DNA of 64,000 bases from Owenia fusiformis (GCA_903813345.2 CAIIXF020000001.1:26784001-26848000); one strand, 5' to 3'. Positions 16,014-57,400 are shown, counted from the first letter of the stretch. Program-made: numbers and translations. Notes: generated from the sequence alone by a model not told the origin.

Positions 16014-16459
16014 ATGGAGCTTTGGTTGAAAGAAACTCAAATGGATATAGTCACACACATATAGAAATGACGCCCTCTGATACAAGGCATTCAGCCCAGC
16101 ATACATCAACAAATCAAGCTAGTCCCCCACCACAAGCTTCTGCAGACCTCCAGCATCCCACAACTGATCAATGTCGCGATGACAGACAACAGCAGGCAAC
16201 TGGAGAAATCAGGCAACATGATAACACAAAGGAAAGATTAAAAAGAAAATTAACTGACATTGAAAAGCAGGAATGCTCAACTGAAATTGACAGAGATGTT
16301 GTAACACATGTGGAGGATGATGGAGGGAGATCAGGTTTTGATGACGTTGGAGCAGCTGATGATAATGATACAGATATCAACTCTGATATACTGGATATAA
16401 ATAAGAATGAAACTCAAAAAGATCTTAACACTGGAATTTGCTCTTTAACTTTAGCTTAG
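16014..16459 (+). CDS. Candidate terminal coding exon (disordered S/T/Q/D-rich tail), possibly an alternative last exon of the aquaporin
   Basis: Acceptor TTTTCAG at 16013 and about 147 open codons to TAG. Its phase 1 matches the aquaporin exon-4 donor at 7152. Confidence 0.5.
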
Positions 16460-16529
16460 ACTTATGCATGATAAACATTGTGTGTATGTCAGTTTGGGTC
16501 ACTGGATTGTATCTTGCGAGTAAAGTGAT

Positions 16530-17470
16530 TGTACAACATTTAGGTTCAAGAGGTTGTATACCATTTATGGTTCAAGAGGTCGTACATCAGTTAGGGTCAA
16601 GAGGTTGTGCATCATTTATGGTCAAGAGGTTGAAAATCATTTACGGTCAAGAGGTTGTACATCATTTATGGTTCAAGAGGTTGTACATCAGTTAGGGTCA
16701 AGAGGTTGTGCATCATCTATGGTCAAGAGCCTGTACATTATTTACAGTCAAGAGGCTGTCCAACATTTAGGGGCAAGAGGCTGAACATCAGTTAGGGTCA
16801 AGAGGATCAAGAGGTTGTACATCATTTATGGTCTAGAGGTTGTACATCATTTAGAGTCTAGAGGTTGTACATCATTTATGGTCAAGAGGTTGTACATCAA
16901 TTATGGTCTAAGAGGTTGTACATCATTTAGAGTCTAGAGGTTGTACATCATTTATGGTCAAGAGGCTGAACATCATTTAGGGTCAAGAGATTGTACATCA
17001 TTTACTGTCTAAGAGAAGTGCATTATTTAGGATCAAGAGGTTGTACATCATTTATGGTCAAAAGGTTGTACATCAGTAAGGGTCTAGGGATTGTACATCA
17101 TTTACGGTCAAGAGGTTGTACATCATTTAGAGCCTAGAGGTTGTAAATCATTTAGGATCAAGGGGTTGTACATTATTTAGGATCAAGAGGTTGTGCATCA
17201 GTTGGGGTCTAGACTTTGTACATCATTTATGTTTTTTTTAGGTTATTGTTATTTATTTCCATATTATGTCAGAAAATTAACTGACATTGAAAAGCAGGAA
17301 TGCTCAGCTGTTGTTCATCAGTTAGGGTCAAGAGGTTGTGCATCATTTACGGTCAAGAGGTTGTACATCATTTAGAGTCTAGAGGTTGTACATCATTAAG
17401 GATCAAGAGGTTGTACATTATTTAGGATCAAGAGGTTGTGCATCAGTTGCGGTCACTGGATTGTACATCA
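16530..17470 (+). repeat. 25-bp minisatellite (GGTCAAGAGGTTGTACATCATTTAT)
   Basis: Over 30 diverged tandem units, interrupted at about 17230-17306. Confidence 0.92.
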
Positions 17471-18422
17471 AATATTTGGGTTTCCGTTGTTCCAGAAAAA
17501 TGACAAAATGAGTCATTAAATTATTATGATTTTATTACATTTATAAGTTTTTATGATACAAGAGCATGCTAAACATACATGTATGTAAGCTTCAGATTAC
17601 AGTGTACATTGTACATAACATTGCATTTTAAATATATATAGTTTAATGAAAATGTACATATGATTGGTACTCGAGTATATTTTGAGATAAGTAACAACTT
17701 ATGTCATCATAGTATCAAAAATACAAACAATCACTTTACAATGAGGATTTACAATCCATTTTTGTTTTTTTATAATATGTAATTTTGCATTTACAAAATT
17801 TTCTAAATCAATATCGTCTTATCCACTGAAATCAACTATATTATAAAATGTGATACAACTTTAAAAAGAAAATATGTGTAACGTATTCGAGGTAAGGCTG
17901 TACACAGGGAAATTGATAACATAATATAAAGTGAGATAATCACCCTATGACATGTATGATGCAGAACAATGCAGAAAAATGATGAGATTTTATGAGTTAA
18001 GAATCCAAAGAGTATGTGGAAATAGCATTAAGAATTCTTTTTACTTTGTGCAATTCTGCATCATCAATGTAGGATCGGATGATTGATAATATTGCCTAAG
18101 ATCATTTTAATCTGTCAGCAAAGCTTATTTTTATAAGCTTTATTGAAGGCTTATTTCTGCCACTGAACATGGACACAATCAGTCTTGTTACAAGAGATGG
18201 GCACAAGTTGAAAATGCCCTCAAATAATTTCCCTAAAATGTTCCAAATCAATATCAAATAATCAGTGTGAAACATATCCAGGTTGGCCAAGATTAACATA
18301 CTGGTACATCATCGTCAAACTTAACAGATGCACATATAAACCAATCTGAGACATATCTTATTTAAATCATTGTGAAGGTCATAGTATATCATAGTCTGTA
18401 CAATTTCCTATGAGCTGGCTTC

Positions 18423-21400
18423 TCACCAAAGTTTAGGCTGTTTTTTCTTTAGTCCACCAGTTGATCGAGTTCTTGTATTGCGCGGAGCTGTAGATGACTT
18501 CTGAGATGATAGTCGAGTTCGCACCCCAGTTGAGACAGATTCTTCCGGAATGGGTGAAATGAAGTTAATAGGACTATTTGACATGCTGGTTAAGTTTTTC
18601 TTGTTCCTAGAATAAAGATATGAATTCAATCCTTTTAACATGTTAAAAGTGAATATAATATTATTTGAAACAGGCCCATGTCATCAAATATTTGTAACAA
18701 ATTATATTTGCATTGCATTGTGCAGAATTCCTGTTGTGTTTTAAAGCTGTACATGTTACAAGATGTTCCAATAAACAAACAAGCAAAACTCAGTTCACTG
18801 CAAGTTAAAAATATATAGAATAGAATTTACACTGAACAATTTGTGCACTGCAATCTATGATTAGTGAAAACAAGGAAAGGATGAGTCTGGGAATGAGTCT
18901 GGGTATTATTTCTACTTTGTATGTCATATATGTTGCCATTGGTGTTTTTTCTATGATGATGACTATTTGTTTTCTGTTAGGATACTTATTTTGACTGAGG
19001 GACCAAAAGGACTCATCCTTTACACTTATTCAGTGTGGTTGGGTGGTTTACTCTTGCACAAACTTACTTGGGAGGCCTGCCTCTTCTTGGTTTAGTGGCC
19101 TCTGGTATAGACTCGCTCTCAGATGTAGAGCTCACTCTGCTACTTTGCCTGGTGGGCTTACTTCTTGTGGGGGTTTTTCTGGTGGGGGTCAGGTGTCCTG
19201 AACGTGTACGAGTGGCTGGGGGTGAGAACACAAAGGGCTTGGCAGGACTTACTGGCTCTGCTTGTAGTTTGGCTCGAGTGCCTGAAAAACATTTTTTGTA
19301 CCATTAGTATCCTAACTGACTAATCTCGTTTTACAAAAACACTTCTGAAAATGTCTACAGTCAAATCATACAGGTCTTACTGCATCTTACAGGCGTTTAT
19401 TAAATATGAATTGCCAATATTAAATGTTTACTTCAATTTCAAAGAAACTGCATCCATTGACTTAATTTTTGGACTTTCTTGGACACTGTAACCACACCAA
19501 TGGTGGAACAGATCAACATGGAGTGCATATTAATACACTAACTGCATGTAGGAACAACAATAATTTTAGTAAGAATTCATACAAGCGTCAAACATACTAT
19601 AACCACTGTAGATACCTACCTTCTGGTGAGTTGACAGGCATAGGGTTGGAGAAAGTAAAACTTGGTGCTCCTCCCCCTGGTAAAACACAAATACAAAAAA
19701 CAATGTCAGTACAAACATAGTGTAACAAACAAATTACACACCAAATTATATTAGTTTATAAAGCCCTAAGTTGAGGGTAGATGAAAATAGTGACCTATAG
19801 AAGTATTACATTACACCAGGGGGTTTCATTAGCAGCAGGCAACAGGCGATTTTCACCGGTCGTTCACAAAATGGCCTGATGTTTTTAAGGACTTGTCAAC
19901 TTTTCCATGTTAAATTTATGATTTCCATTAATTTTGCCTGTTGTTTTCATTTATTTAGCCTGTTGTGAGAAATTCTAGTGAAACCCCCGTAACACACAAA
20001 CATATTAATGGAAAAGCAATATCATGATTTTTAGAACAAATGCTGATAAAACCATGCTGATGAAATGACATCGATAAAAATAATCTAGTCTAGCACAAAT
20101 CCACAATATACTTGTAGGCAAATTCACAATCAATTTTCAGAGAACTAACTATTCATGATGGTACAATTTTAGAATGCCAAATATACATGTATATGTGCAT
20201 TATGATTCCAAACATTTTAGCAAATAGACTACAAAGTACAATCGCACCCGGTTGAGAAAATCATGTAATTTCCCTTTGGACATTTCTTCATTACAAAACA
20301 AATGAAATGCCAAGTTGAGAATAAATCTATTGTGAACACTGCATAAATTTGTATTAATGCTCAAATGAAAAGATATGGTTAGTAATAATCATTATTATAA
20401 TTATGTAAACAATTCAAGAACCATTTGAGTTGCACAAATAAAAGAAATTACCTTCACAGGCTGACTCATCAGTGTCTGTATTAAATACAGAGTCAGGGGT
20501 CATTTCCCTTGGCCTCCCTCGACCTCTACTTTTCGGGGCCAGTTCTGGGGATGTATCCCTTGATGAACCCTGAGAAGACAGCCTTGAAGTTCTCCGAGTT
20601 GACCGTGGAGCAGGAAGCACAGACGTTGGCTTGGTTTTTGAATTTTGTAAAGTATCGCGTCTCAATCCTGATCTTAAGTTAGACACAGGTTCGGGTGTTG
20701 GGTCGCGTGATAGTCTGCGGGGCCCAGACCTTAAGTTCCTCACGGTGTATGTATCGTTAAGTTGTGGCTGTGGGGAAGGATCCCTGGAAGATGCATGTTC
20801 GGATCTTAAATTTCTAACATTGTATGTGTCATTCATAGGCTCAGGTGTCGGGTCTCTGGATGGGGTCTGTCTACCAGACCTCAGACTCCTTGTATTTTGG
20901 GCTTCTGGGGTTACATCACGCGATGGAGTACGTCGGCCAGATCTCAAGCTCCTTGTATTTTGGGATTCCGGGGTTACATCACGTGATGGGGTACGTCGGC
21001 CAGACCTCAAGCTCCTGGTATCAGTAATTTGGGGTTCCGGGGTAACATCCCGTGATGGCGTCTGTCGGCCAGATCTCAAGCTCCTTGTATTTTGGGATTC
21101 TGGGGTTACATCACGGGATGGAGTGCGCCGGCCAGACCTCAAGCTTCTGGTATCAGTAATCTTGGGTTCAGGGGTAACATCCCGTGATGGAGTTCGTCTA
21201 CCAGACCTCAGACTCCTAGTATTCTGGGCTTCTGGGGTAACATCTCTGGAAGTGGAACCTCGACTAGACCTCCGGGTCATTATAGGCTCTGGGGTGTTAT
21301 CACGTGAAGGAGTGTGGTCCCCAGATCTTAGTCTTTGCATGTAGGAACCGGTGGATAATGGGGAGGTATCAGTTACATCTTTTGTCTCTGCAATACAAAA

Positions 21401-24400
21401 AAACAGATAAAACATTCTGTGATATCTATTTAATAAAAATGATTTGACCAGGCAAGAGACTGTCGAGAATAAAACTATAAATACAGCATCTCCACAGAAC
21501 AAAGATCAATTCACTAATTTTTCGAACACTTGGAGACCTAAAGAATTTTTTTGTGTTACCAAGCTCTGGCATCAAGTTTTTAAAAAATCAGGTTTTGAAG
21601 TGTGGTTTATCTCACGAAGCCATTATTTTCCAATAAAGCATGTAATTTCTAGTTTTGCATTCATCCACATCATCCTTGCAGTGTGCTCTCATGACGATGC
21701 AGATTCCAAACACAGTTCGAGTGGTACTTTCAATTGACTGTTGCTTACCTATCATTGAGATCTGGCATATATTTTGAAATAGCCATAATTTAGTCAGATT
21801 TGAACTTGTACATATTTTTTCAACTGTACAAACAATCATGTGGTTTTGACAACGAGAATGAAAATACAGCTGCAATTTTTATTGGATCACCCTATACATC
21901 TCTAAGCAATCACTCAATGTTGACCATAAACACCTATTCAGTGAATAGAGTATCTTACAAACCTGGTTCTACATCAGACATATCACTGGCATCTGGTGGC
22001 ATGTTACTCTGTGTTGTGGAGCTGCTTTCACTCTCTATGGTACTGCTCTCTGAACCTGACCTAGAAGAACCCGACCTGGTGGACCTTGGACTCACTGAAG
22101 TCCGACTGCTAATTGAGGGGCTCACCTAAAAAGGAAGTATGGATTGATTAGTCACTGTGCATAATACAGTTGCACCATAGCCTTGTGTCTCATACTGTAT
22201 AGAAGCCAGGTCTATTCGTATTTCATAAATCTGAGTTTTTATCTTGTAGTAATGTAAAAATGAAATTTAAAAATTGGCCCTTTGTTTCTAGCCTGCATAA
22301 TACAGCCTATGGAAATCATACGTAACAAAAAAATTTAAGACAAGACAAAGGGAAAAACAATAAAAATCCTAAAATTTTACCTGTTGGGTGACAGGTAATG
22401 TAGGACTGGGTTTAGGCGATTTCTGTACTTTGCTTCTGGGAGAGGGGGGCGGAGGAGTTTTGAACCCTTCATCAGACTGGAACAAAAAGGAACAAGCCTT
22501 AGAAACAATACACATTGCCTTAAATTGGCAAACAGTATATACAAGAGTTTTCACCGATAGTATGCAATGAACAGTTCTTGACAAAATTACTAAAGTTTAA
22601 CATGGTGTTCTAACCTTTGTTGAATCTACTGATGAAAGCCTGGAATTCCTCAAAGAAGTCTGTTTATTATTGGGAATAGTATTAGGAGAAAGATGCTGTA
22701 TAGACTCATCACTAGGTATTTCCACTGTCAGTTCCGGGACCTCCATAGGAACAAGTGATGATTTATTGGATATGTTTGCTGAGCACTTTGGAGATTGTTT
22801 CGGGGAATGTTTTGGAGAACTGTTGTAAACGTGTTCAGTTGTATTTACAACCAAGGCAGTTAGATTTGATTTACCCATGGTATCATACTGTTCTACATTG
22901 TCTTTAAGTGTTCTATTGCTAATATTCTGTTTAATTTCTAGCACCTTGTCAACATCTATGCCACCATCATCACCTTTATGTTTCACTGTATCATGATGTA
23001 GTTCATTTTCACTAGAATCAATCACAGATATGGTTTCAATAGTTTCATTTTGATCTGTAGAATCAATTATTTCTATTGTAGAGTCCTTTACTTCTATAGT
23101 TTCAATAGTGTCATTTTTATCTTCTAAGGTGTCAATGGCAGCTTTAGTCTTATTTATGTCATCCTGAGGGACGATTTTGTTATCTATGATGTTCTTATTT
23201 TTTATATTTATTTCCTCTTGAGCTTCAGCAAAGTGTTCTCTGCCACTAGTTTTTAAATTGCCTTCCATGGCATTATCTCTCCTATCAATGCTTTCATTAC
23301 GAGTTTCAATTTGATCAAAAGATTCATCTTCAATACTGTCACTATATACATCATTTTCATCATCATTATTGAGCACATCATTGACAACCTTTTGACACTC
23401 TTCTCTAGCAGAAACAACATTCACTTCATCTACATCATTAAATTCCATAACAGCATCTTCCTGATCTTCCACATCACTATCTTGCTTTTCAGCGACATTC
23501 TCTTCATAGGATGTGTCCCTTTGTGCCTCTGAGGTGGCAAGAATATTGCGGATTATATTTCTAATATTCTTTGTTGTTTGAGGTGTCTGAGGGGTCTCTG
23601 TGAGGTGGTCTTGTTCGGGTGTTCTCAGTGGGGGAGTATCGTGACTAACATCCATGATGTCAACATGGTCTAAAAATACAGAAAACAAAATTATAAATGG
23701 GTTACATCTTAAGACATTCTAGATTTCATGAATTTATAATTGTAAACAATGTGTGAACAATTTATCATAATAGCACTTAGATAGATATACATATGTTATT
23801 TTATTAGTATGACTAATTGAGTCCTGAGTGTCACACTTTGTTAATAAGCTGCTTCAATGTATGTAATATTCAACACTGAAATGCTGAGTGTCCATAGGGG
23901 ATAATACTAAGTACCTGAAATATATTTTACTCCACTGAAAAAATATTACAAATTGTTTTTTTGTGAAATGATTCTACACTTTACAATGGGCATTTGTTGT
24001 AATTTCACTGAAATACAAGAATGCAAGAATCTAGAAAGCTGATTACGAGTAACTAAATCATGAAAATCTACCATTCATACCTTGTTCTTCCTGATCCCCC
24101 TTATTTACACTTTTATTAAGGTTAAAAGTGATGTCATTGTCTACATTTTGTACACCTTCCATATCTTCCTCTTCTTGGTTGTCAGTGGTGTCAAGCCTCA
24201 GGGCTAGAGATTCCTCTGGGCTCCCTACCAGTGGAGATGCACCACCAACCCTCACTGGGCTCTCTACTAGTGTATCAGTCCTTGAAGCCATCTTGGGGGA
24301 TTTTCTAAAACATTTAATCCTCGGATTAAGCAACTTTACTTTATTGCAGTAAAAAATATCAGATGTCAATGATTGATTAATAATTTGATAATATGAATTA

Positions 24401-27400
24401 ATAGTATTAGCTTTGACCCAACATTGATGGAAATATAGATATTTTAGCTTCCAAGCCTTTACGATGATATTTAGTATTTGAGTTACCTGTATATAGTAAT
24501 AAGAAATACAAAAATAGCCTATGTGACATTCTGATTTTAACCTTCCCCTAAATATGTCAATCGTAGCATACGATTACTAAATAGACTAAAAATAAATAAA
24601 TTGACATAAACAAATTCATTTAATGATACTGGTAAAATTTTGTTTTACATAGCTGACCCCATGATAATTACACTAATTAACTTACCTTTCAGGAGTTGGG
24701 CTTCTATCTTTGACACTTCGGGGACTAGGAATCCTGGATTCTTCTTTAGGGGGACTAGTCTCTCCTCCAAAGGAAACTGCAAACCTGAGCTGTTTGGAAG
24801 GAGTCTTCTTGCTCCCTGGGGTAGCATGTTCAACAGTGTGAGGGGTGATCAATGTAGGCGTGGAAGCAGCTTTAGGAGTTGAGGTCGATGTTGAGGCCTC
24901 AGGTTCACTGAAGCCTATCCTACGTGGCACTCTAGGTGGGGCTAGGTCAGCATCCATACTAGCCACACCTTAATGAATTTAATGTCATTGTTACAAGTGG
25001 ATCCATTACTTCAGAATTCAAACAATGATTGTATGACAATGAACTACAGATTTTTTAACATTTCAAAATGATGGGGTTTTCTAGTTTTGAAAAAAATTCA
25101 ACACTTATTAATTTGAGCAATATCTGTAATTCAATTCTCACAAAGGATTAATAATCGCTGTTAAGTTACACATACTTGCAAATCTAGCTGATACTTTTAC
25201 AGGATCCTTTTGAAGTGATGATGGTGACTTTCTTACAGACCTCCGTACTTTTAAGATAGACTGGGGGGTGGGCTGAGGTAGGAGCACCTTGGGGGAGTGG
25301 GAGGGGGTCTTCCGTTTGACTGGGGGTGTGCTCAACAGAGAAAGCACTTCCGCACTGAGGTAGTTAGACATTCTCCTAAAATAGCAAAATGATACTTTCA
25401 ATTCTAAAAATAAATTAGTCTTAATGCATTTGAATAGATTAGACATTCTATGATAGACACTGACGACCTTGACTTTTGTAATTATGGTAGGAAATTCAAA
25501 TATTTGAGTGTTGAAAATAATTTGAGAATAATTCCAGTCATAAGTTATTTTCTTATTTTCAAATTTTCCTCAGGGCTTCAATCCAACTTTAAAATTTCAA
25601 ATCAGACCTATTTTCTGCTTGAATACAAACTCATACCTTGGGGGTGTTGATGTGAATGTAGTTGATATGTGCGGATGCTTCATGGGGGACATTGGGAGTA
25701 GTGGCTCCACCTGGGAGGGGTCCTCCATCACCGACACTGACGGGTAAACAACCTCAGATGCACCACTAAAATATGGGAAAATTACACATTAGAGATAACA
25801 AAAATAATAAACATAAGATTAGTTTCTGTTTATTTTGCTCAATTAGCTTGCTGGTTCACTATCACTTTTGAAATAATATGAATGCAAATTGAAATCAATG
25901 AGTACAATACTTCGGATTCCAATATCTTGCTGGTTCACTATCACTTTTGAAATAATATGAATGCAAATTGAAATCAAAGAGTACAATACTTCAGATTCCA
26001 ATATCTTGCTGGTTCACTATCACTTTTGAAATAATATGAATGCAAATTGAAATTAATGAGTACAATACTTCGGATTCCAATATCTTGCTGGTTCACTATC
26101 ACTTTTGAAATAATATGAATACAAATTGAAATCAAAGAGTACAATACTCCAGATTCCAATATCTTGCTGGTTCACTATCACTTTTGAAATAATATGAATG
26201 CAAATTGAAATCAAAGAGTACAATACTTCAGATTCCAATATCTTGCTGGTTCACTATCACTTTTGAAATAATATGAATGCAAATTGAAATCAAAGAGTAC
26301 AATACTTCAGATTCCAATATCTTGCTGGTTCACTATCACTTTTGAAATAATATGAATGCAAATTGAAATCAAAGAGTACAATACTCCAGATTCCAATATC
26401 TTGCTGGTTCACTATCACTTTTGAAATAATATGAATGCAAATTGAAATTAATGAGTACAATACTTCGGATTCCAATATCTTGCTGGTTCACTATCACTTT
26501 TGAAATAATATGAATGCAAATTGAAATCAAAGAGTACAATACTCCAGATTCCAATATCTTGCTGGTTCACTATCACTTTTGAAATAATATGAATGCAAAT
26601 TGAAATCAAAGAGTACAATACTTCAGATTCCAATATCTTGCTGGTTCACTATCACTTTTGAAATAATATGAATGCAAATTGAAATCAAAGAGTACAATAC
26701 TTCAGATTCCAATATCTTGCTGGTTCACTATCACTTTTGAAATAATATGAATGCAAATTGAAATCAATGAGTACAATATTTCAGATTCCAATTTCATTTT
26801 GTTTTTTACTATCACCTAATGATCATTATGGTACATAGCACAATTAAAATTGTTAGACTCTAACCTTCTCCTAGACTTGAGTTTAGGTGTGATTGGTGTA
26901 CATGTAAATGGTTCCATTGATATAGCTGGCTGCTGTTGCTCATCTCTGGAACAAGCAAGGTTTCAGTTTATATAATTCAATATTGTGTTTCAAAAAGTGA
27001 AATAATTTTGTCTAAATTCAGAAAAGTGATGTTGATTGAAGTAACTTTTATTGAACAGTGGGGATGGGGTAGGGTTTCACTTAAGTGATGACACAAATTA
27101 AAGTTTAAGATATGACATTTACAGAAATTCATTCCTTTAAGAGGAGTGCAAACTGTTCTTGCCATGTCTCATTCAAATAACCGAGCTGGTACATGTACAT
27201 ATATTTCTCAAGTAATATCCAATCAATCACATACCTCTGTTCATCAACATCAATCTCCTCTTCATCTTGGACATCTTTGGCTTCGTTGACTTTCTCCAGA
27301 ACTGCATTGATGAGGGTAGCATGTGAGACAATTGTGCCACGCTTGTTGTTCACTACGGTTGAGAGAGGCCTTGGTCTTACGACTGAAACACACAAATATG

Positions 27401-30400
27401 GCCATCAACACAGGCAAAGTCACTATCCAACCAATAAGAGATGACACACTGCACTGCCAAACTATTTCAATGTTCATACCATTCATGTTGAATTACCTAT
27501 TAATTATTGAAGTGAGAGCAATAATAGCCTCTGAAAATCAAATACAGTGCATGGTCTAATACCGTACAGGTACTAAACTTGTGAAGTGTATTCATGATAT
27601 ACCTTCACGTCTCATCAAGGTGGGCCGTTTCCTAATCAGCTCTGTCCCAAAGGTGAGTTTACGCTGAACTGTGGGGAGAACATTACTGTAACAACTAACT
27701 ATCGCATTCCTAGCAGCAGCCCTCTCCCTTGCCGACACATCTGCCTCATTCTGAAAATACAACACATGAGAAATAAAATGCATTGATTTAACATGCCAAA
27801 CTTAAGGAGAGAAGTGTTTTGATTAGAGAATAACAATCAAATTTTTCAGACGTGGTCTCATATCCAACATTATAATTTTCCGAACTAACAAAGTTTGGTA
27901 GGGATATAGTGAAGACCTCCATCTGTCTGTCAGTCCACTAGTCAGTCCATCTGTCCGTTCGGAAGATAACTCGAATACTAGTGGACGGATTTTCTTCATA
28001 TTATTCATATTGGTGAATAGCTGTATACAATAACAAAAAAATTCCAAGATGGCCACCGCTTTAAAAATGGCTGGTTTCGTGAAAATCTTAAGTTTTTCTA
28101 AGATGAGGGAAAGCCCCAGAGTTTAAAGATGACAGACATAATTACCTCTCTTGCTTACCACCTTCGTTCATTCGAATTTTCATCGGCTAGTTATCAAATA
28201 TTACACTTCGATGGGATGTTTTAATTGACATAGGCATATTCCGTACACCTTTCCTTATCTTGATGTGAAATGAGAAGCTATGATATTGGTTAACACGCCA
28301 GAAATGAACATAATATTATTCGAAGCGTATTTCGAAAATTTTGAAACCGCCATTGATGACGTCATTTGTTTGTCGACTTTTGACCAATCAGCGACGATGT
28401 CATCTCAATACAGATTTACATTATAAGCGTATGTCATCTTTAAACCCTGGTGTTTCTCCCCCTCTGAGTTTTTCTTTTTAAACCAAAGTTATAAATATTA
28501 TTGTTTCGAATTTTGGTAGTATATTCACAACATGTTCTATCTATTTCATATATATTCCGAGTTTTTCAACATGACCCCCAGGGGCCATGTATTAGGGGTT
28601 GGGAAAATGGGAATTTGCTTTAATTTTGAGATCTTTCTAAAGTATAGCTTTATTGTACTCAAATGAAAGGCAATTAGAGTACATTGCAAATATTGTATTG
28701 GTTTTGTAATTTTGGCCAAGTAAAATTCAAAATGGCCACCTTATGTGAGATTTTGCAATAATTTTCTGACCCCTTTAAAGTATGGCTATATTATCAAATT
28801 GAAGGAAATTTAGGGTAGATCATTACTTTGGCATTGTCTTTCCGATTTGTGCCTCAGAAAATTCAAAATGGCTGCCAACAGGAATTTGCATTAATTTTGA
28901 GATATTTCTGAGTATTGCTTTATTATACTCAAATGAAAGGCAATTTATAGTAGATTGCAAATACATGTATTGTATCGGTTTTGTAATTTGGGCCTCGTAA
29001 AATTCAAAATGGCTGCCACCTTATGAGGAATTTCGCAATAATTTTCTGATCTATTTTGATATTGTCTTTATTATTTGTGCCTTAAAAACTCTTAAAGATC
29101 TAATAGCAAAGGTTTTGCAAAAATAAATCAATGTAGTATAAAACAAATGTATGTATAATGAAGAAATAAATATATAATGAAAAAAATAGATATGTGTTAC
29201 AGTATTATATTCTATTATATTCACATTAAGTTTAGTTTATCAATATGCATATACTGTAACTGATCTTCATTAGAGATCTTAGGTCAAGGTCACAATGACA
29301 TTATATCTTGTAAACATAACTGAACTGAATGACTCATTAACCATTGGTCTTCTAGAAAGTACTGGAACTATAATCATTAAATCAAGATTGAATCATGTGA
29401 CTTAAGATGTCCAATCAGTGTTGATTTCCAGAAATTGTAACTTCTTGAAACATCTGGACTTTGCCTTTGCACTATATAATGAGAGAGCTGATTTGGGCTG
29501 TTAGCAGAATTTTAAAGTTGATCAAAAGGACATCTTCTTAGCAGAAAATTACAGACACCTACTTTGGGAACATTTATAACATTACAAACATACAACCTAA
29601 GGATTTTATATGGACATATATTACAACACGCACTATATACGGATTATCATATACATTCGTGGATTATCATTAAACATTTGTGGATTATCATCAAACATTA
29701 TTGGATACGAACATTATAGGATTACAACAAACATTATTGGATTATTACAAACATTGGAGAACTATCAACGATTATTGAAACATTCCGTGATCTGGAACAT
29801 TCTCAAGGATCGTCAACGACATTTATCGACATCAAGAATAAGCCGTATCATTGATTGGACATCACTTAAGTATTAAACCTCCTTTATATTATTGTTATAT
29901 TATTTAGTTTTCAAAATATAAATATATTGTTATCATATTTTAATTGCTGTTTTTACTTTCTGTTATTTTCGAACGTAACAGAAATTGGGGGCTCGTCCGG
30001 GAAACAACTATAACAAGCTAAAATACAAATATTTTAAAATTCAAAATCTAAAACTTGCACATTTAATTTGTGAAGACAGCAATTAATCAAAAATGAGTTT
30101 TGAGGTTGAGACATTTTTAGAAGCGCCCTCTTTGGAGGAGTTTGACAAGTTAAAGAAAACTGATCTTCTGGCACTGGCTAAACATGTTGGCTTGGCAGTT
30201 AAAACTTCCTACAGAAAAGGCACAATTAAAAACCTTTTAGTGCAATATTTGGTAGCAGAAGAAATTCTGCCTGAGGAAGCGTTAAAGCTTTCCATGGAGC
30301 CGGCCCAACATGTTGAGCCTGTTGATCCTATTAGGCTCAAAGAGCTTGAATTGAGAGAGAAAGAGTTAGAAATGCAAAATGAAAGAGAGAAAAGAGAAAC

Positions 30401-45400: not shown

Positions 45401-48400
45401 AAAAGCATCTTCATTATGTCATCATTGAAATTCTATTCAGAATAACATAATTGGTACCAATAAAATTCAAATTGAATGTAAAAAAATGTTTGTGACTGTA
45501 GTATTTATAATTTACAATGTGTACTATCACAGGCTGGTATCGAAAGATTTGTCCGCTGTGACGGAGCATGCTATTTTTCATAAAAACTCTAAGAATGCTT
45601 CACGATTTATTTTTTAACTCATATGTTTCGTTATATCAAAGATAATTACTTACTCCATGCAATGGATATATCATTTGCGTGTAACCTTCACTTCTGTTTG
45701 AAGTCCAATAACGCTAGGAGTAAAATCTATTGAAAACGGCGCCAGAGTATCAAACTCTAAAATGTACCATTTATTTTTTAACTTTTTAATGGCATGATAT
45801 AGTGACACGATAATATTAACATATGTTTTCAGCATAACTCTGAATGTATTAATGAGATATTAATGCATTGGGTCTTTTTAATTATTTTATAAAAAATAAT
45901 ATTAATATTTTTTGTCCGCTGTGACGGAGCATTTTCACAGTTCATATTTGCACCTGCTCCGTCACAGCGGACAAAAAAATTAAACATTATTTTTTATAAA
46001 AGAATTAAAAAGACCAAATACATCAACATCTCATTTATACCTTCATAGTTATACTGAAACCATGTGTAAATATTATCGTGTCACTTTATCGTGCCATTAG
46101 AAAGTTAAACAAGAAATGGTACATTTTGAAGTATGATACTCCGGTGCCATTTTCAATAGCTTTTCTTCCCAGCGTAATTGGACTTCAATCAGAAGTGAAA
46201 GTTACCCGCAAATGATATATCCATTGCATGGAGTAAGTAATTTTGTATGGTATAACGAAACATATGAGTTAAAAAATAAATCGTGAAGTATTCTTAATGT
46301 TTTTATGAAAAATAGCATGCTCCGTCACAGCGGACACATATTTCGATACCAGCCTGTGACTATCAAAAATCAAAAACATAATATTACTTATTGTCCTTGG
46401 CTCAATAAAGAATAAGGATCAAATAGGGTTAGTTTATAACATCAATGATTAGGTTTTTGACAGCTCTGGCCATGAAATTGAGAAACTTGATCAATTGACT
46501 GCAACTCAATGACAATTTTATTCAAAAGACTTTTGATCTCTAACTTTGCGAATATAATATTTTTGACCCAAGGCACTTAATTATAAATACCAGTACTAAA
46601 TGAATTGTTGTATTAACCTCTGAACATGACACACACCCAAAACCAAATTTTGACCATCTACTTCCACCAAGTGGCACATGTCACTTAGATTGTAGTTAAA
46701 CACAAGGTATTAACAGGCAAAATGTCACCACCTGCCATTAGTTACAAGTGCCAAACTCTGAATGCCAAACACTAGCTTATCCACAAAAGAGTTAGAGACT
46801 ACAATATGTCACCACTTGTGGTGGTGACATAAAAATGGTGTCTAAGACAATATAACACAACTGGCCAGAAGAATTATCTCCCGACCTTTGGTCATATACC
46901 CCGGGTGTTAGAGTCTAGTTTATTAGCAAAGTAACTATTGTAAAGGGTAATGATCACATACACACTGCCATAGAATTGAAACAATTACTCTTTGATTATA
47001 TCTTAATTGACTTACCAGACCAGTTTGTTTGACTCTTTCATTAAGGCGTATTGCATCTACATATCTAGACCTCTGTAAGTAATGCATTATGAGGATCTCT
47101 TTAGAATTGGGCTCTTTAGTCTCCTGTAGGTACCCTATCAACTGGCGCTCCTCCACATCATTCATTGGAAGCTGAAGTAGACTATCTATCATCTTGGCTG
47201 AAATTCAAGAAATTTCGTTTGATTGTTTAATTCTACCAATACAACTATTGCTCTTGTTTGCCCTCAATTCATCTTTACAATAAATAATCCTCGACTATAA
47301 AAAACACCTCAAGAAGACAAAGGTCATTTTGGTGTGTCTCACTGAACAAAATGAATCTTTTGACAAAGATGAGATATGACATTGAATAAATGCAGATATA
47401 ATCCAATGAAGACATTACTATCTATATGTTGCCCCAAGAAATTACTCATTTAACTACCAATCATTTAACACCAAAAAGGAAAATTTTTATTTGATGGTGT
47501 ATCGATGACATTGTGTTTAGACACAAATGTTTACCACAGCAGGCAATTAATGACAGTTTCCATGTAATTTGTTTGGCTTATACTTTCCAATTATCTTGTC
47601 TGTTGATTTGCCTGTTATTGATGAGTCACATCTCATGTGAACAGTCAACCAATGTTGTTTATACTATGTTTTATACTTACTTTGTTGACATCCTAGGAAG
47701 AAATGTGAAAGAAGGTCATCCAAGTTACCCTCATCTCTACACAAACGCTGATACTCAAATGCCTCAGATGTCAAACTATAACACATCAAACAGTGGAAAT
47801 AATGCATAAAATAGTAATAGACATTCACTTAAGGATCAAACAAGAGAAATGTTTATGCTTTAAAATACATTTTAAACGGATATTTTTTTTTTCATATGCT
47901 ATACATTGGTTCAGCTAATTTGCTAAGTTAAATCAATTTGTCTCATTCTTTCACCAAAATCCGTCTCATACATATATTTTATACAGGTATTCACGAGAAC
48001 AAGTTTTACTGAATTTAGATATATAATTTCAAAACATTTACAATTCAACAAACACTAACCCATTGGCCAGTAGAACAGTCAACTTGAGCTTCACAAGTTC
48101 AGGGGTTTCCATTGGTGGTTTCCGTATACGAATGAACCGCAGGGCCTTCTGGTGGTGACCTTGATAGAGGAATGCCTTGATGACACGAACCTGTTGCCAT
48201 AGTGATATGTTCACATCAATCATAGGATCCAGCAGAGAAGTCAGGGCTTGCTAAAATTGTAATAAATTTTGGTTATATTATCATGCAAACATATACTCAT
48301 AAATAATTTGAAGTCATTATCCAAGCCTATGGTCACTTCACTATCTATTTGCCAACCCAGAAATGTGTTAATGATTGGGATTCTTACGGGGCTAGAGGCA

Positions 48401-51400
48401 AGACTACCATTACCATAATTACTAGAGCATATACTAAGCAAATTAACAGATAAACAGAGGAACCTTTAATGTCAGTTTCATGTCCATCCATGATTTCCTA
48501 AATTCTTAACTGCTACAAGTGGACTTTGAACAATGAGATTTTCGTCTTGATTCCCTTACATTAACTGCTTCAATGTTTGAACTAGATAACGGCAACTCCA
48601 CGGAGTAGCAAATCCCAACGAACAAAATATCAATTACCGAATTCCAATCAATTATACTCATTACTTTGGTTGAAAATGAAAAAATTAGATTTTAGAATTG
48701 CGAATTCCTGCAAAGCAGCCATTTTGAATTTGCTGAGGTACAAATCTGAAAAATAATACCATAATTGTGATCTACTCCAAAATTCCTTCAATTTGAGTAT
48801 AATATAGCCATACTTTGAAGGGATCGAAAAATTATTGCGAAATCGTACATTAGACGGCCATTTTGAATTTACGAGGCTCGAATCAGAAAAAAGATACAAT
48901 ATTTGCAATCTACTCTTAATTGCCTTTCATTTGAGTATAATAAAGCTATACTTCAGAAAGATCTAAAATTAGCGAAAATTTCTGTTTTCCTGTCCCCCCC
49001 ATACATGGCCCCTGGGGGTCAGGATGAAAAACACAGAATATATGTGAAATAGATAAATGTTGTGAATACACTACCAAAATTTCAAACAATAATATAAATT
49101 ACTTTGGTTTATAATGAAAAATTTATGATTTTTGTGAAAAAGTCCCATCATTTTTAAAGCGGCGGCCATCTTGAAAAATTTTTTTTTTGCGTAAAACTAT
49201 TCACCAATATACATCTTTCCACTAAATATGAAGAAAATCTGTCAACTAGTATTTGAGTTATCTTCCGGACAGACGGACGGACTGACTGACTGACTGACGG
49301 ACAGACGGACGGACGGAGGGCTTCACTATATCCCTAACGAACTTCGTTCGTTGGGATAATAAACACTAAACACTAAAATAAGTCTACTACAGCATAAATA
49401 AAAGCCATTTATTATGTAGAGTTTAACCCACTTACATCAAAGTCCTTGCGGTCAAGGAACCAGTAGCCTTGTATGAGCCTTATAAGTCCCTGAGGTATGG
49501 AAAATGCTTGGTAGAATCTGCTCATTCTCTCTATAAGCTAAAACACAAATTTTAAAATTAATATCATGTTTTCAAAATATTCATTTAAAATTTCTCTTTT
49601 GATTGGGGTCTAGTTTAGTGTGTATTTATTCAGCCAGCTCAGTAGAAGGATGCTGATGTAGCTTCTCAAATGAGGGCAAATATTAGGGAAGTTAAGCTGC
49701 ACTCTATTAAGAGAACTTGTATATGATCATGTAAAATCATGACCTCTAGGGATTTCTGGCCCCGTTTCGATTGATTTTTTCAGGGACCCAATTACAATGA
49801 GAATTTTACCCATACTTGTTCATGCTGTTCCTGGTTGTTCTCAGCTAGCAGGGAGACTAGGTCAAACAAGACATAAAGCACCATGCAGTGTTTGCATTGC
49901 ACACTGACATTCTCTAACAGGTAGATGTTCAACAAAGCCTGTAATAAAATCAGAATCTATATGACTTTTGAAACTGTACTACAATCAGACACCTATGTTA
50001 TTCATTAAAAGGGCTTGATTAAAATATTTGAACAACCCTAATATACATACTTGGTTTTCAAATGAGGAATTCATAGCCTATCTTCTCATTTCAAATTTTC
50101 ATTCACAATGAAATTGTAACAATATTCAACGTTCTCCCGAGGATTTTTTCTCAGATGGGTGCAAATTCTCATTTTCTCAATTCAGCCCAAAATTGGTCAA
50201 AATATGCCAATTTTTCATGATTTTTCTCATTTTCAAGTGGATTTTCAGGTGAGGCAAGGCAAGGCTATTTTCAAAATCTCAGGTGGGTGCTGCGCCCACT
50301 TGCTTTATTCATTGTTTATTTGAACTATTTAGATAGATCATTTAATGAGTTATCTCTTTATATCATGTACTATACTATTTAATGCAATCTTTTAATTAAA
50401 AATAAACAATAACTAATTTTTACAAAGTTTCAGAAAGAGTACCATGGCTGAATACATTTAAAAACACCCATGTTACTGTAAAAATACTTACATGAAGGTT
50501 TGGTGGTGGGTAAAGACCATCACCGCCATCTTTCTCCCAGAGTTCTTTCACACCAGCATTTGGTTCATTCACAATGCCATCTATCAGGAGAAGGTCTGTT
50601 TGACTAACATCGCTAAAAAGTAAGAAATACATTGATATCAAGGTATTCGTAAGAAAACATGTATGCAGAACTTTGTAACCTGATCTAATCACTTTATAAT
50701 CAGTTTCTATACATGATTAGATGCCATTTTGATAAATATTGGAAATTATATCAAAATCATTGACTCCACATATCACCCCTCCCTCCAACACCATATATTT
50801 CTCCCTGGTTAAAAAAGAAGTTGGGGAGGAAAGATTTGATGAAAAACTATTGGACTGTTCGCCTACCTATGAAGCTGCCTGAGTGCTTCTCTACGCGACT
50901 GGTACTGTTGCTTCAGGATGGATGCAGGGTAGAAATAATGTTTATTATGATGGTCTCCCTCGTGAAACTCTGGCAGAAGGCCATTTGCTACACACCAGAG
51001 GACAACGTGTAAATGCTGGCTTATCAAAGTCACCACATTGAGCTTTGTCTCCAAATCTTTGCTTCCTAGTCATGGAAAAAGGTTTGAATAAAGTTTACAA
51101 TACAAAACACATCATACATAATGGTCGCCTTTTAAGAATTAAAGATCATCCTAAATGTTGAAAAATATGACAAAATGTAGCATGCTTGCACAGATACCAT
51201 ACTTTTTCGATATATCATGATAACTTGATGCAGCCTAATCAAATTTCCCGAATTGACATGTGAGGCTTGGTAGAAAATGTATGTAAAACAAACAACCATG
51301 CTCAAACTGAAGTCATACAAAAAAAGAAAATATGCTACAAAGGTAACTTACCTTGTGCAGTAGTTTGTGGTGTCTGCTCTGAGAGTGCCTTGAAGATTGT

Positions 51401-54400
51401 CACCATATGGTCTAATTGAGCTTGGTACATGTTGAGTAACTGCATGGTGCTGTCATCTATATGGTGCCCAGTGTAGTCATACAATGGTACACCTTGATGA
51501 AAATATGATACAAACATATAATAACAGTAAAATATACACATGTTGCTTCATATATTAGATGAACCCATTCTAGGTCTTGTAGACTCTTGTATTGTAGTTC
51601 CAGAGTAAAGAATGTGATGACTGAAATCAAACTGAGAACAAATATTTCAATGGGCAAAAATATGGTTAGTTATAATACTTCTATCACTCTCCTCCTATCA
51701 ACACCAAAGTATCATTATTTAGCACTGGAAGCAAAATGACGTTCCACTCAGTTGGGGTTTAAATATTACAGTGCATAAGAACTTGATAGTCCAGTTTATT
51801 TTGAAGAACATCATAATCATTATCATGGGTTTGGAGTTTTGGTCAAAATATGTAAATTATAATTTTATAAGCTGGCATGAACATGTTGTTATTTCAATTA
51901 CTAAACTTACATAGTTTGTCTAATGCTTCTTTTACAGATCCTACTTTCTTCCATGCCCAGTCTAGTAGGAATCTCAGGGTACAGCCCAGGTGGTTGTATT
52001 CTACAATGCATAATAGTGACAAAATCATGAAAAGTGAGAAGATTATGAAATGTGGAAAGATTGTAAAATTTGACAAAATTATGAAATACAAAAAGATTGA
52101 TTGTTTGTACAATATATTTCAATATATTCTACAGTTCAATATTCTAATCAATCAGATGAAATCGTATAGCTACTACATCACTTATTTTGTTTCGATGTAT
52201 CACCCCTTCAAATACAAGAATGGACAAACCTCCTTCTGCCCATTGTGTAATACAAGTGCTGATAAACCCCACTGCATTATAGTCTAACAACATAGATAGA
52301 ACAGTAGCCCTCTGGTTGTCCCTGGCAATGTTAACAGAGGCAGGATCTATTGCACAGGGCAGTAGGCCAGCAAACATGGACATCTTGAACACATCTCTGG
52401 GATCTGCTAGAACACCAGGGCCACGTTTAATGAGATCAGATATGATTTGGCGTTGAACTCCTAAGAACTGTGTGTGAACTATCCCCGTCTCCATCAAACA
52501 GGTAGCATCTGAAATAATGATTTTGTTTAAATTAATTTGAATAGAGTTTTTCAAATTTAAGCGAAAATAGAAGCTGTGATGAAATAGTGTAAATAAATTA
52601 GAAACATGGACCCACAAAATGGATGTGAACATGGGTTGAAATGAATGGCCATTTTCATTTGTTCAAAAATCGGTGGCGAGTACAAGAGTGGTTGCTCCTA
52701 AAGGCGCTCACTGTGAGATCTAAAGGTATGTGAATTGTATCTAAATTTCAATTCTTTTTACAATAAAATTGCACACCTCAGAGTTTAAATTAACAGATGT
52801 TTGGAATTGATATCTTTAGTACAAATTGTTAAGGATTTTGAATTTTCCTAACATCTATAGAAGTGAGTTAATTTTTTTGTATAGACTATACATAACCAAC
52901 GAACACATGACTAATAACTTGAGTGCTTACTCACCAAATGCTAATGATGATGGATAGAAGTGAAGTTCAGGAGCTGGTGTAATGTTTGACTGGAACTTTG
53001 TAATACTTTGCTTTTCGACATAGACACTCTGAAACAAACAATCATCATTTAACAATCTACTCACTCAGACTGTTCAGGAAGACTTTTGCACCTATTTCTC
53101 TGTGGATCATACTTTCAATATGAGAGCCGTTCACCTCTACATTTTGTTCAAGATTTACTTTAGAAATTAAATAAATGAATGCATGATAATTTCTAGTTTG
53201 AAAATATTTTTTGAAATGCATGATTTGGTAAATTAGTAAATAAGCTTACTAGTAAACAATCTGGGGATGCTGCATCTAATACATCATCTAGGATACAAAA
53301 TGCAAAATAGGGACACTGCTGTAGACCTCCATTTGTTAACCTACAACACAAACAAAACCAGTCAACATTCTACACGGACACTTTTGAGCATTGTACATTC
53401 AGGATTTAGAGGCTTCTCATTTTAACCTTTAAAGATGGAAATCCTAAAATGCTTGTAATGTAATGCATTTAACAATTTAAAATCTCTATTATGTCTACTG
53501 CGCCAACTCTTCATGCTTATATTTCTCTCTTTTCTCTATATGTCTTATTAATTCAAATTAGAGTTATACATATTCAATCAAGAACAAACGTATGAAACTT
53601 GGTTGGTTGGACTACACTTACCTAACTTCCCCTGGCATTTGAGACTGGTACCATCGATTGAGATCAAACATACCAAGAAAATATGATGGCTTGCTGTGGG
53701 GGTCTTCATTTGCAGCCTCCCAAACAAACACACAGAGGCTCATGTCTGGCCCAGAGACCCCTGGAAATGAACATGAATATCATTATCAAATATAAAATGC
53801 TTTTGAACACAAATTCTTACAATGCATGTCTTTTCATCATCTTCAGCAAAAGAGAAGTCAAGGAGAATATATATGAAAGAAATACTGATCCGAACTTGAC
53901 AACTGAAAATCAATTTTATCAATAATAACAATAATAATTACCTTCATCAAAGGAATCCTCCTCATTATTTGCCTTAGTTGCAGATGTCTCAATAGTATAA
54001 CATTCTACTAGTCTACTGCCATCACATTGGGTCACCTGGCTGTGGAATACATCTCCAGTCAAATCATAGTCAAACCTTGGACCAACTGACATCAGATCCT
54101 GGAGGAAGATTGGAGAATGAAAACTCAAAATAAGCAATAGGATTCATCAATGAAAATATCAAAATTTTATAAATGATACTGGGTATCTTCTTTGTGAATA
54201 AGATATAGACATATTTTATTGAGCATATGAAAACCTGAACAGTGCAAAAAGTTGGAACAATTTATTGCAAAAAAATAAATGTTACTTCATTGCAAATGTA
54301 TCTGAATGCAACAAAACAGATGCACATTTAAGCCATTCTACTAATGCTACTTACTTCATAGAGAATATTGCAGTTTCCATAAATTGTTCTCTCATTGAAG

Positions 54401-57400
54401 GCAAGCTGATATAAACACAGTAGACCAGTATCCCCTTGACTGGAAAACAAATGGAAAGATTAAATAAAAAGTGTAATGACAAGAAAAAAAAATATATAAC
54501 TTGAGTACTTTAATATGAATCACAGTAAACACATAGCATATGACTAGGAATATAAAAATGTTAACTTTTTAATGTCTACAAAATATGTATACTAGAAAAG
54601 CATCAAACAAATTATAAAGTTATGAAGATTCAGGGGTTTCACTAGAATTTCTCATAACAGGCTATATAAATGAAAACAGGCAAAATTAATGAAAACATAG
54701 AAAAGTCCCTCAATACAACAGGTGATTTTCTGAATACAACTGGTGAAAATCGCCTGTTGCCTGCTGGTAATGAAACCCATGAAGATTGTACATAAGACAA
54801 TCAACAAAATAAAGTAAGTTTACTCACATGGAGTCCTGTATTCTTGGCCCCCTGCCTACCCAGATGTAGACAAACTTGCGGGGGTCATTCTCTGGCTCCT
54901 GGTAAGCAAAGTGGGTCACTGGAGGCAGGTCCTCTTCAAACCTACAGCTATATCTACAAAAATAGAATGTTGATATGTCATTGTGTGCTTACAAATTATC
55001 ACATATACATGTATTTCATAGATTGTTAATTATTATTTTGGTCCACACTCTCATCTTAGCAATTTTAATATAAAACATGACTCCACCCAACCATTCAATG
55101 TCACCCAATATAGCCAATTTTTCTGACTCCAATATACTTCACAACATAAAGACATTCCATGTCAAAGACAGTGCCCAAGTTATTAATATGCAACTACAAT
55201 TCATTCTATTCTGCCTACTTACTCTAATGTCTGGTTGTACATTTTCCATAGCTGAAAACTGCCAAAGTTGAAGCCTACAGCAAGTAACCCGGTGTGGCCT
55301 ATATACTTCAAACTGGTCACAACAACTGTATCTGGAAGAAGATCAGTATTCTAAATTGGACAATTCCACAGAATTACTGTTTCAGGAGGAAATATAAAAT
55401 CCATTAAAAAAATCACACATCCCATAAGAAAAATCTCATTTAGATTTTTTAGACTAAGCCTGTGTATTAGACTGAAACAAAATAAACAATATAAACGCGA
55501 CATGTGCCCTATAAACCAAAAAATTATGAAAAAATGTGCAAAGTGCAATAAATCTAAAAAAGAAAAATTCAAGTGAATGACGAATCAACATTTCTAGAAC
55601 AATATGGGGGTCTAGGACTAGAACTAACTTTTTTCACAACTGTTCAAAGCATCTCTATCTTAACTGTACTACATTGTGTTCATGGTATTTCATTTCACTA
55701 ATAATAGTACTAGTCTAAATCTGCCTTCACTAACATATAAAACAAAAATACCTGCACTGAAGTCCCTTATAGTTTTGCCATCCTGTTTCCTGTACTTGTA
55801 AGCTCCTCTTTCAAATGCACTTCCTTTTAAAATAAAAATACATAATAATTTTCCAAATACATTCCAACATTTGCATTATATAACTAGTGGCAAATCCCAA
55901 GGAACAAAATGTTTCCCAAAACAATATATGAAGATTATGATAGAGAATAGTGCAAAATTTTGTATATATTGGAGAAATCACTAATATCAGTGTCAAAACC
56001 GTCTATATACATTCAGCGCTATGTTTAGTGAGTAAAATTTTGTGTAGCCTAGCCATCAGATCGAAGCTTTAATAGAAAAAATTAGATTAAAGACATTGAT
56101 TCCAGATAACAAAAAAAAGTACATACTGTCTAGTTCTATACAGAGGTGTTCATCTCTATGCAGGGCCTGGAGTCTTTGAGTGCTAAAGTCCCGACTCTGT
56201 ATATCTATCATACATACAGTGCCAGCTGTCACCTCATTCGTCACCTCATCCCACTCATCCAAACACATATCTGACAAGGGAACAAAGGGGAACATTAAAA
56301 AACAAGAGACATAGAAATTAATATTTCAAAAATATTTAAAAATTCAAATTTGTCCGAAACAGGGATAATGCTCATTTAGATTGAAGAACTTCGTTCTCCA
56401 AACCAAGAATCGTCCTTTGCTTTTTATCTTGAGAAGCAAATATTAGTGTGAATTGTCATATTTAGAAGTTCACTGCTTAATATGTGCCACTGCATGATCT
56501 GAATTATTTGGAATCTCAAGCTTTATCAAAGATATGGTAATACCAATATAACAGGAGTGAGTATTCTCACCTATTATATAGACATGTCCACCTTGAGTAC
56601 CGACAGCCACAATGCCTTGGAAACACAACAATAGTTCACTAAATGCAGGGTTGGCCTCAACTGTCTTTGTCTCATCTGTAACCCCAGACACTGCAGTCAC
56701 CTACATAGACAGAGACGTAAATGGTTGTAATATTATATACAAGATGGATTAAATATGTAGTAAAAGAGAGGAAAACAAAGGGGACATGCCATTAAGAGGC
56801 CATTCTCTGACTTAGTCATTTTTTCAAAAGTGTGAAAATAAAAAAATTCATGAAAAGTTCTTAAAATATTCTGAATAACAAGTTGAATATATATATTTAA
56901 TGATGGCACAAGCAAAAGTCTGAAAATTAACACGAAATGAAGGGTTTTGACAGATGCAAAAGATGGTAGATTTGTGATGAAGAAATAGAGGTTTTTGCAG
57001 TAACAACACAATTACCTCCAAGTTATCCGTTATGAAAGGCTGAGGACTAAACTTGACATAATTTTCAATCTCAGATTATCAGTAGTATCTAACTTAAGCC
57101 GGACAGCCACTCTAAATGTATATGGAGCCCATAAGATTCATTTTTCTCAATTGAAGTCACTATTTCTGTTTTTAGCTTGAGAGGATAGGAGGTACATGAA
57201 CATGCTTAGTTTACCTAGATCACAAGCCTTACCACAAATATAAAGTATATGGGAATAGAGTTGATATGTGTGAGAACCTTAAACTTCTCATTTTATTGGG
57301 GATGGAACTTGTGGACCATGTGTATTTCTAACTTCTTCACATGTGCATGGATCTCAAATTGTGGCAGCCATCTTGGATTTGTCATATTATGTGGACATGG

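Follow-up and report, generated by a model that had tools for sequence, protein, structure and literature searches.

A single exon of the ELYS gene of Owenia fusiformis encodes ten LRS(G/E) motifs in tandem, most of them paired with CDK sites, and this feature is real, expressed, and under selection. ELYS starts the rebuilding of nuclear pores after cell division. We propose, tentatively and with somewhat less than even confidence, that the exon gives ELYS a second, regulated grip on chromatin. The window that was analyzed is a stretch of 64,000 nt (GCA_903813345.2, CAIIXF020000001.1:26784001-26848000), and all positions are counted from its first letter.

The ELYS gene and its array exon

The ELYS gene was modeled with 36 exons on the minus strand (59915 to 18423), which are separated by GT-AG introns throughout and together form an open frame of 2322 aa. 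Pfam detected ELYS-bb (PF16687) at aa 10-521 (E=1.3e-86, 291.6 bits) and ELYS (PF13934) at aa 754-982 (E=1.4e-44, 153 bits), both above the curated cut-offs, and the region of aa 1001-1280, which lies across a 19-kb intron, is 32-44% identical to ELYS orthologues. The genome contains a single ELYS-bb locus. The modeled protein matches the public ELYS of Owenia fusiformis, CAH1774002.1, letter for letter, but this entry is probably a product of the same assembly and hence gives the gene model no independent support. The features are listed below in the order of transcription, with the evidence in brackets where it goes beyond the sequence itself.

47016..59915, minus strand: exons 1-22, ELYS beta-propeller and alpha-helical domain (start codon at 59915)
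21963..27750, minus strand: exons 23-32, end of the helical region, presumed PP1 motifs, acidic disordered linker (homology of aa 1001-1280; RNA joints from 25636 down)
25249..25260, minus strand: SILK motif, aa 1225 (similar position in the orthologues checked)
24781..24795, minus strand: KQLRF motif, aa 1311
20452..21387, minus strand: exon 33 of 36 with the array, 936 nt, phase 1-1, aa 1860-2171 (GT-AG, open frame, RNA at both joints)
21287..21343, minus strand: first, diverged unit QRLRSG...TPSRDNTPE (codon table)
21230..21274, minus strand: degenerate unit without LRSG, SRDVTPE kept
20837..21229, minus strand: six core units, aa 1913-2043, TRSLRSGR[RQ]TPSRD[VP]TPE plus a linker of 3 or 5 aa
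20891..20983, minus strand: 31-aa single-motif peptide modeled on H2A-H2B (complex prediction)
20666..20818, minus strand: three diverged distal units RNLRSE, RNLRSG, and SNLRSG, TPSR lost, SRDx[ST]P in two
20507..20524, minus strand: RGRGRP at the end of the array exon, which we take to be AT-hook-like
19068..19281, minus strand: exon with the conserved FxFSPP..TRxR block and the AT-hook PRRGRPP at 19070-19090 (Xenopus alignment)
18423..18606, minus strand: last coding exon, conserved SPIxFISP block, basic C-terminus, stop codon (joint 18605/19067 in reads)

SILK and KQLRF, the latter of the RVxF type, are presumably PP1-docking motifs, and both lie upstream of the array in the protein.

Expression was analyzed by aligning 4 of the 24 listed runs to 17800-25800. 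Two stranded RNA runs that belong to one study gave 34 and 25 reads over the joint upstream of the array exon (21387/21963) and 56 and 40 over the downstream joint (19675/20451), compared with 33/20 and 72/45 at neighboring joints. Contigs of a third run, which we guess to be RNA, carry both joints of the array exon. No exon-skipping joint was present among the 15 joints listed of 34 in the RNA runs over this region. The first mates fall on the plus strand, and therefore the ELYS RNA is derived from the minus strand. RNA joints from 25636 to 18605 place the array exon in one transcript and one frame with ELYS; upstream of 25636, the link to the ELYS start rests on the frame, the homology, and the public model. 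The original prediction that the exon belongs to the ELYS mRNA was thus confirmed by the RNA reads at both joints and the two ELYS domains. The array lies in a minus-strand open frame of 363 codons. A plus-strand ORF of 256 aa (20574-21344) was rejected as an antisense shadow because the stranded reads put the RNA on the minus strand, and a Pfam match of the array exon to FMRFamide was sub-significant and was rejected as chance.

The ten motifs, nine of which are LRSG, extend over aa 1879-2100 (20666-21337, minus strand). All had been predicted correctly (QRLRSG, six RSLRSGR, RNLRSE, RNLRSG, and SNLRSG), but the predicted spacing of 21-23 aa applies only to the six core units, because the spacings along the whole array are 40, 23, 21, 23, 21, 21, 25, 25, and 19 aa. 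In agreement with the prediction that TPSR and TPE follow most motifs, TPSR was found after 7 and TPE after 8 of the 10. The full CDK consensus is [ST]-P-x-[KR], and such a site adjoins the motif in 7 of 10 units. Every core unit combines a LANA-like LRSGRxT with the full CDK site TPSR and a second TP, and both TPs have a Ser at -4. The stretch of residues 1875-2105 is rich in Arg (46, versus 1 Lys) and also contains 26 acidic residues as well as 17 S/T-P sites. In 20,000 shuffles of the exon residues, the highest LRS count was 5, which shows only that the repeat is real because the motif copies are duplicates. TRF reported a DNA array at 20859-21244 with periods of 63, 132, and 195. The conserved distal blocks and the AT-hook come after the array (aa 2178-2322). 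Judged by this order, the array sits upstream of the conserved nucleosome-binding tail and adds to it rather than replacing it.

Searches of the genome at the DNA and protein level did not reveal a second copy of the array; two weak matches were rejected due to internal stops. Homologues of the array exon were absent from 8000 scored candidates (proteins of 549-2000 aa or 171-545 aa, with proteins above 2000 aa outside the range), in searches that are weak for low-complexity queries. None of the PDB sequences matches the 31-aa single-motif peptide, and the ESM Atlas yielded just a 0.75 lead with low recognition.

The surroundings of the array exon contain several further elements. The ELYS intron at 27751-47015 harbors a Gypsy-type LTR retroelement (29194-36088, plus strand; labeled from its domains), the LTRs of which are 100% identical over 787 nt, and the insertion is therefore very recent; its 1642-aa ORF (30087-35012) has a SCAN domain and an integrase before RT/RNase H. 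The same intron contains an apparently intronless nested gene (40988-43645, plus strand, antisense to ELYS) that encodes two CARD stretches and, at the C-terminus, NHL repeats. Its single in-frame TGA (42191-42193) could indicate a pseudogene, a null allele, a hidden intron, or read-through. An intronic tandem repeat at 25847-26792 consists of 12 copies of 79 bp with 97% identity, and short high-copy intronic elements at 19820-19987 and 18876-18996, to which a sequence near 54640-54770 is similar, have very deep piles of DNA and RNA reads. Directly past the ELYS 3' region lies a 25-bp satellite array (16529-17470), and AATAAA signals on the minus strand are present at 18144 and 17536. A 168-codon open frame without a Pfam match (15953-16456, plus strand) is convergent with the ELYS 3' end, and an exon of an aquaporin (MIP family) was found at 5072-5593 (plus strand, E=1e-31).

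Purifying selection on the repeat units

Comparison of the six core units (18 codons each, 15 pairs) gave a pS of 0.63 and a pN of 0.04, and after removal of the unit-defining RSLRSG columns, pN/pS was 0.063/0.669. The most parsimonious tree of these units requires 34 base changes and 3 amino acid changes; with about 72% of the sites being non-synonymous, the binomial P for 3 replacements in 34 is about 1e-12 to 1e-14. Shifted frames showed the opposite pattern, and one antisense frame mirrored the coding frame, as expected. Because 34 base changes led to only 3 amino acid changes, the array is selected and not recent. It is under strong purifying selection, is held at the protein level, and is old relative to allelic diversity. 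The pairwise pS between units ranges from 0.33 to 0.98, and the two most similar units differ by 5 synonymous changes and by no replacement. A recent tandem duplication had been predicted: the tandem repeat was found by TRF, but units that differ at 33-98% of their synonymous sites are not of recent origin.

Compared with the window, contigs of a second sample show 7 differences in 482 bases and 1 in 317 within the array exon. Among the variants listed, which are a small and filtered sample, 6 of 7 read variants in the array exon are synonymous, and protein-changing variants make up 4 of 9 in the acidic linker exon versus 1 of 7 in the array exon. Indels or joints inside the array did not occur among those listed, with the X5 contigs gapped at 20942-21070 and the DNA run X24 having almost no depth on the array exon. 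One X5 contig carries a 9-base in-frame insertion at 23306, in the acidic linker exon.

Likeness to known acidic-patch ligands

Residues 8-14 of LANA are LRSGRST (PMC13736603), and the chromatin-binding motif of IL-33 is given as MXLRSG (PMC8750818). Binding of LANA to H2B is abolished by G5A, M6A, L8A, R9A, S10A, and G11A, is retained in R7A and S13A, and is weak in T14A; S10E or T14E keep or restore it, RSK inhibition reduces it, and phosphorylation of T14 primes GSK3 on S10 (PMC3475679).

The L-R-S-G core is present in 9 of 10 Owenia copies. The six core units contain LRSGRxT, which equals 6 of 7 LANA positions; they keep L8, R9, S10, G11, and T14 and the S-x-x-x-T spacing of S10/T14, but not the G5 position. 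The Met at -2 of LANA and IL-33 is replaced by Arg in eight copies, by Gln in one, and by Ser in one. Since it is lacking in 10 of 10 copies and M6A abolishes LANA binding, the array lies outside the MXLRSG class, and the likeness to LANA and IL-33 that had been predicted extends to LRSGRxT but not to this Met. The array may nevertheless work like a MXLRSG motif, as a linker segment of ALC1 with RSLR and without Met binds the acidic patch with a Kd of about 1.1 uM (PMC7116876). The anchor of ALC1 is the first Arg of RSLR, in reverse polarity (PMC7116876), and therefore the register of the Owenia array is uncertain. The ALC1/CHD1L linker also has S-Q 3-4 residues before RSLR, like three Owenia core units (two with ESQNTRSLR, and a similar one with AQNTRSLR). 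Unlike the Owenia array, it is a single copy with a first-Arg, reverse-polarity anchor and regulates an ATPase. LANA and IL-33 also have one motif copy versus ten in Owenia, and the Thr is followed by Pro in Owenia, whereas LANA has neither a Pro after T14 nor a second TP. No common ancestry is implied.

ELYS itself is known to target the acidic patch. The Xenopus protein binds it via an RRK stretch and an AT-hook in the region 2281-2408 (PMC6499780). Human ELYS binds it via redundant basic segments without a single anchor and partly binds DNA, and it is displaced by LANA; enrichment at the metaphase plate was seen in 43% of the cells for the full-length protein and never for the tail-less form (PMC7515726). 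The conserved blocks and the AT-hook of this C-terminal nucleosome-binding region of ELYS/MEL-28/AHCTF1 (Xenopus 2281-2408, human 2157-2275) are also present in Owenia ELYS, where the exon 19068..19281 aligns with Xenopus aa 2279-2340 (E 2e-5 for Xenopus, 1e-9 for Glandiceps). The known region has scattered basic residues, in contrast to the Owenia array, which is a separate upstream tandem of a defined motif that is mostly TP-paired. For human ELYS, 156 phosphosites are reported, and the phosphorylated protein recruits VAPB in mitosis (PMC11094025). A review terms ELYS phosphoregulation unexplored (PMC9576876), and it is merely suggested that phosphorylation might block the APC3 anchor (PMC11445581). 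In the available parts of PMC7764596 and PMC11445581 no mention of ELYS repeats was found. The literature searched (titles and abstract openings, with most subscription papers outside) contained no tandem, possibly CDK-gated ELYS array, no match to LANA-like multivalent acidic-patch repeats, and, on Owenia ELYS, just an unrelated taxonomic key. The acidic patch as ELYS target and the single motif type are known already, whereas no tandem pairing with CDK sites in ELYS was found in the literature searched.

The 31-aa single-motif peptide was modeled together with H2A and H2B from the same genome (H2A without the initiator Met, numbers shifted by +1). The three runs scored 0.74, 0.73, and 0.03, and the best of three controls 0.02, the controls being unrelated proteins and not scrambled Arg-rich peptides. 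Among solved complexes, 51 of 78 reach the score mark, compared with 2 of 108 mismatched pairs; in the eukaryote calibration, it is reached by 39 of 65 without a like complex and 2 of 126 unrelated pairs. The calibration included no peptides. Contact agreement between the runs was at least 3%, and partner pLDDT was at least 39. The predicted contacts are E56, Y57, A60, E61, E64, and E92 of H2A and Q44, V45, E102, L103, H106, and E110 of H2B. In the best run, the Arg of L-R-S contacts H2A E61 and E92, the anchor residues that are also used by LANA; the arginine-anchor class is defined by one Arg inserted at H2A E61/D90/E92. The Leu is predicted beside H2A A60/E61/E64 and H2B H106, the Arg at the Met position contacts H2A E56/Y57 and H2B E110, and the Thr of TPSR contacts H2B Q44/V45. 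Modeling thus placed the L-R pair in the acidic patch, as had been predicted, in 2 of 3 runs (0.73 versus 0.02). Complexes of the LANA type are solved, and therefore the result may reflect memory; the model shows likeness, not binding. Tandem clusters of histone genes are present at G000:C11 and G000:C8, where the period is about 6.76 kb and 6.37 kb, respectively.

Arrays in other ELYS tails and possible mechanisms

For a comparison across animals, residues beyond 1100 of 134 ELYS proteins of at least 1600 aa were used (57 matches, 120 listed of 227 matches, and cluster members); the set includes isoforms and close relatives and is thus non-independent. LRS occurs no more than 5 times in any of the 133 other tails and no more than 3 times within 250 aa, LRSG is found 11 times in all of these tails together, and LRSGRxT, present in 6 copies in the Owenia array, is absent from them. 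The array is therefore unique among the sampled proteins, the named ones of which include no other annelid, and may be lineage-specific, as had been predicted. Versus local shuffles, the 133 tails are enriched 2.1-fold in LRS, 3.5-fold in TRS, 5.4-fold in [RK]x[LT]RS, and 3.7-fold in full CDK sites, and thus scattered related motifs are a trait of the ELYS family. The 16 full CDK sites of Owenia ELYS are unexceptional compared with 14-48 in full-length mollusc tails.

Tandem arrays of some sort were found in 36 of the 134 tails. In 16 proteins from 11 genera (Owenia, Pecten, Mizuhopecten, Ylistrum, Haliotis, Littorina, Mya, Mytilus, Crassostrea, Xenopus, and Rhinophrynus), the array is Arg-rich and has one or more full CDK sites per unit; the LRSG array is thus one version of a recurring design. 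The remaining arrays comprise two basic ones with fewer CDK sites and 18 acidic ones without any, an absence that is partly trivial because a full CDK site requires a basic residue. The arrays of Haliotis, scallops, Mya, Mytilus, Littorina, Crassostrea, Xenopus, and Rhinophrynus share the tail region with the Owenia array and, like it, combine 2-5 Arg with about one full CDK site in each unit. They differ from it in unit sequence and period (8-30 aa), none has LRSG, and their CDK site precedes the Arg cluster, whereas it follows the cluster in Owenia. The unit sequences also differ between the lineages, which suggests separate origins. No description of these arrays was found in the literature searched. 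Mytilus californianus ELYS (P0076) has tandem KSPGRRKSILK units at aa 2043-2198, in which a CDK site is paired with SILK; its six SILK motifs at aa 2074-2180 could possibly form a multivalent PP1-docking array. Xenopus laevis ELYS (P0153) has seven 30-aa units with QPSTPTRG[RH] at aa 1810-2030, and Haliotis ELYS (P0014, P0061, P0066) has 11-13 eight-residue SPARSLRE units, including the ALC1-like RSLR, at aa about 1544-1657.

If the array provides a second grip, the distal tail would bind constitutively, as its charge of +21 would remain at about +11 even with its S/T-P sites phosphorylated. In each motif, the Arg of L-R-S would enter the E61/E92 pocket of H2A in the manner of LANA, as the model predicts; with Arg in place of Met, single units would be weaker than LANA. 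Up to ten units about 21-25 aa apart would add avidity, so that one ELYS could hold or bridge several nucleosomes, and bridging of neighboring nucleosomes is plausible because even full extension would separate adjacent units by no more than about 8-9 nm. Mitotic CDK1 would phosphorylate the TP sites, possibly priming GSK3 on the LRS Ser four residues upstream. By charge arithmetic, this would shift the array from +21 to between -4.5 and -13 and thus neutralize it, while the distal tail stays positive. Dephosphorylation in anaphase would then sharply raise the affinity for chromatin and seed pore assembly. PP1 had been predicted as the phosphatase; for basic pThr-Pro sites, PP2A-B55 is an equally reasonable candidate. 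The charge arithmetic favors a lowering of chromatin binding by mitotic phosphorylation, whereas the data for LANA and human ELYS point the opposite way.

These data lead to a different reading, to which we assign a rather low probability: the repeats could dock like LANA without an off-switch and hold ELYS on chromosomes through mitosis, with phosphorylation tolerated or even favorable. Such a function would fit the binding of LANA S10E and T14E, the effect of RSK inhibition, and the presence of full-length but not tail-less human ELYS on the metaphase plate. However, the array has 16 TP sites, enough to cancel its net charge, LANA lacks the Pro after T14 as well as the second TP, and Glu is a weak mimic of phosphate. 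Unlikely, but less so, is a generic charge switch, in which a CDK-gated polyarginine patch either binds redundantly to DNA, RNA, and the acidic surfaces of histones or brings about condensation, and the LANA likeness is incidental. The redundant, partly DNA-binding basic segments of human ELYS point to it, as do the recurrence of CDK sites plus Arg without LRSG among the 16 of 134 proteins (11 genera) and the family-wide enrichment of full CDK sites, for which Owenia is unexceptional. Yet all six core units share the same S, L, S, G, and T although their synonymous sites have diverged, charge alone would need none of these residues, and the model predicts a specific fit of L-R in the pocket.

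The conserved phosphorylation module could also have a function of its own. The paired S-x-x-x-T-P could be a hub that recruits readers of the Pin1, Cks1, or WW type, phosphatases, or import receptors, with only the distal tail binding chromatin; the reader and kinase consensus motifs behind this idea belong to general background knowledge. It is consistent with the 11 copies of SRD in the exon, which occur even in units without LRSG or TPSR, with the persistence of SRDx[ST]P-type halves, which equals that of LRS and exceeds that of TPSR (7), with the Ser at -4 of both core-unit TPs, with the pairing of CDK sites and six SILK motifs in Mytilus, and with the recruitment of VAPB by human ELYS. 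Retention of LRS in the three distal units that have lost TPSR argues against it, and we regard it as improbable. Neutral expansion, with the disordered tail accepting tandem duplications of any kind, would explain why 36 of 134 tails have some array, 18 of them acidic and without CDK sites, and why the Owenia array has no detectable homologue. It is largely refuted by the pattern of codon changes, including the closest pair of units and the opposite behavior of the shifted frames, and its probability is very small.

Within the second-grip reading, the comparison can be extended to a wider proposal that must be regarded as doubtful: ELYS tails across animals may repeatedly evolve CDK-gated Arg arrays that tune the chromatin grip at mitotic exit, and the Owenia module would have converged on a LANA-type anchor, a ten-valent clamp that bridges nucleosomes and is released by CDK/GSK3 phosphorylation. 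Because identical, selected units join a putative anchor with kinase sites, valency, anchor specificity, and phospho-gating are testable on short peptides. If the array docks, the viral chromatin tether would have a multivalent counterpart in a cellular protein. Arrays also recur in molluscs and in frogs (one being that of the Xenopus protein of egg-extract work), which suggests a relevance beyond one worm.
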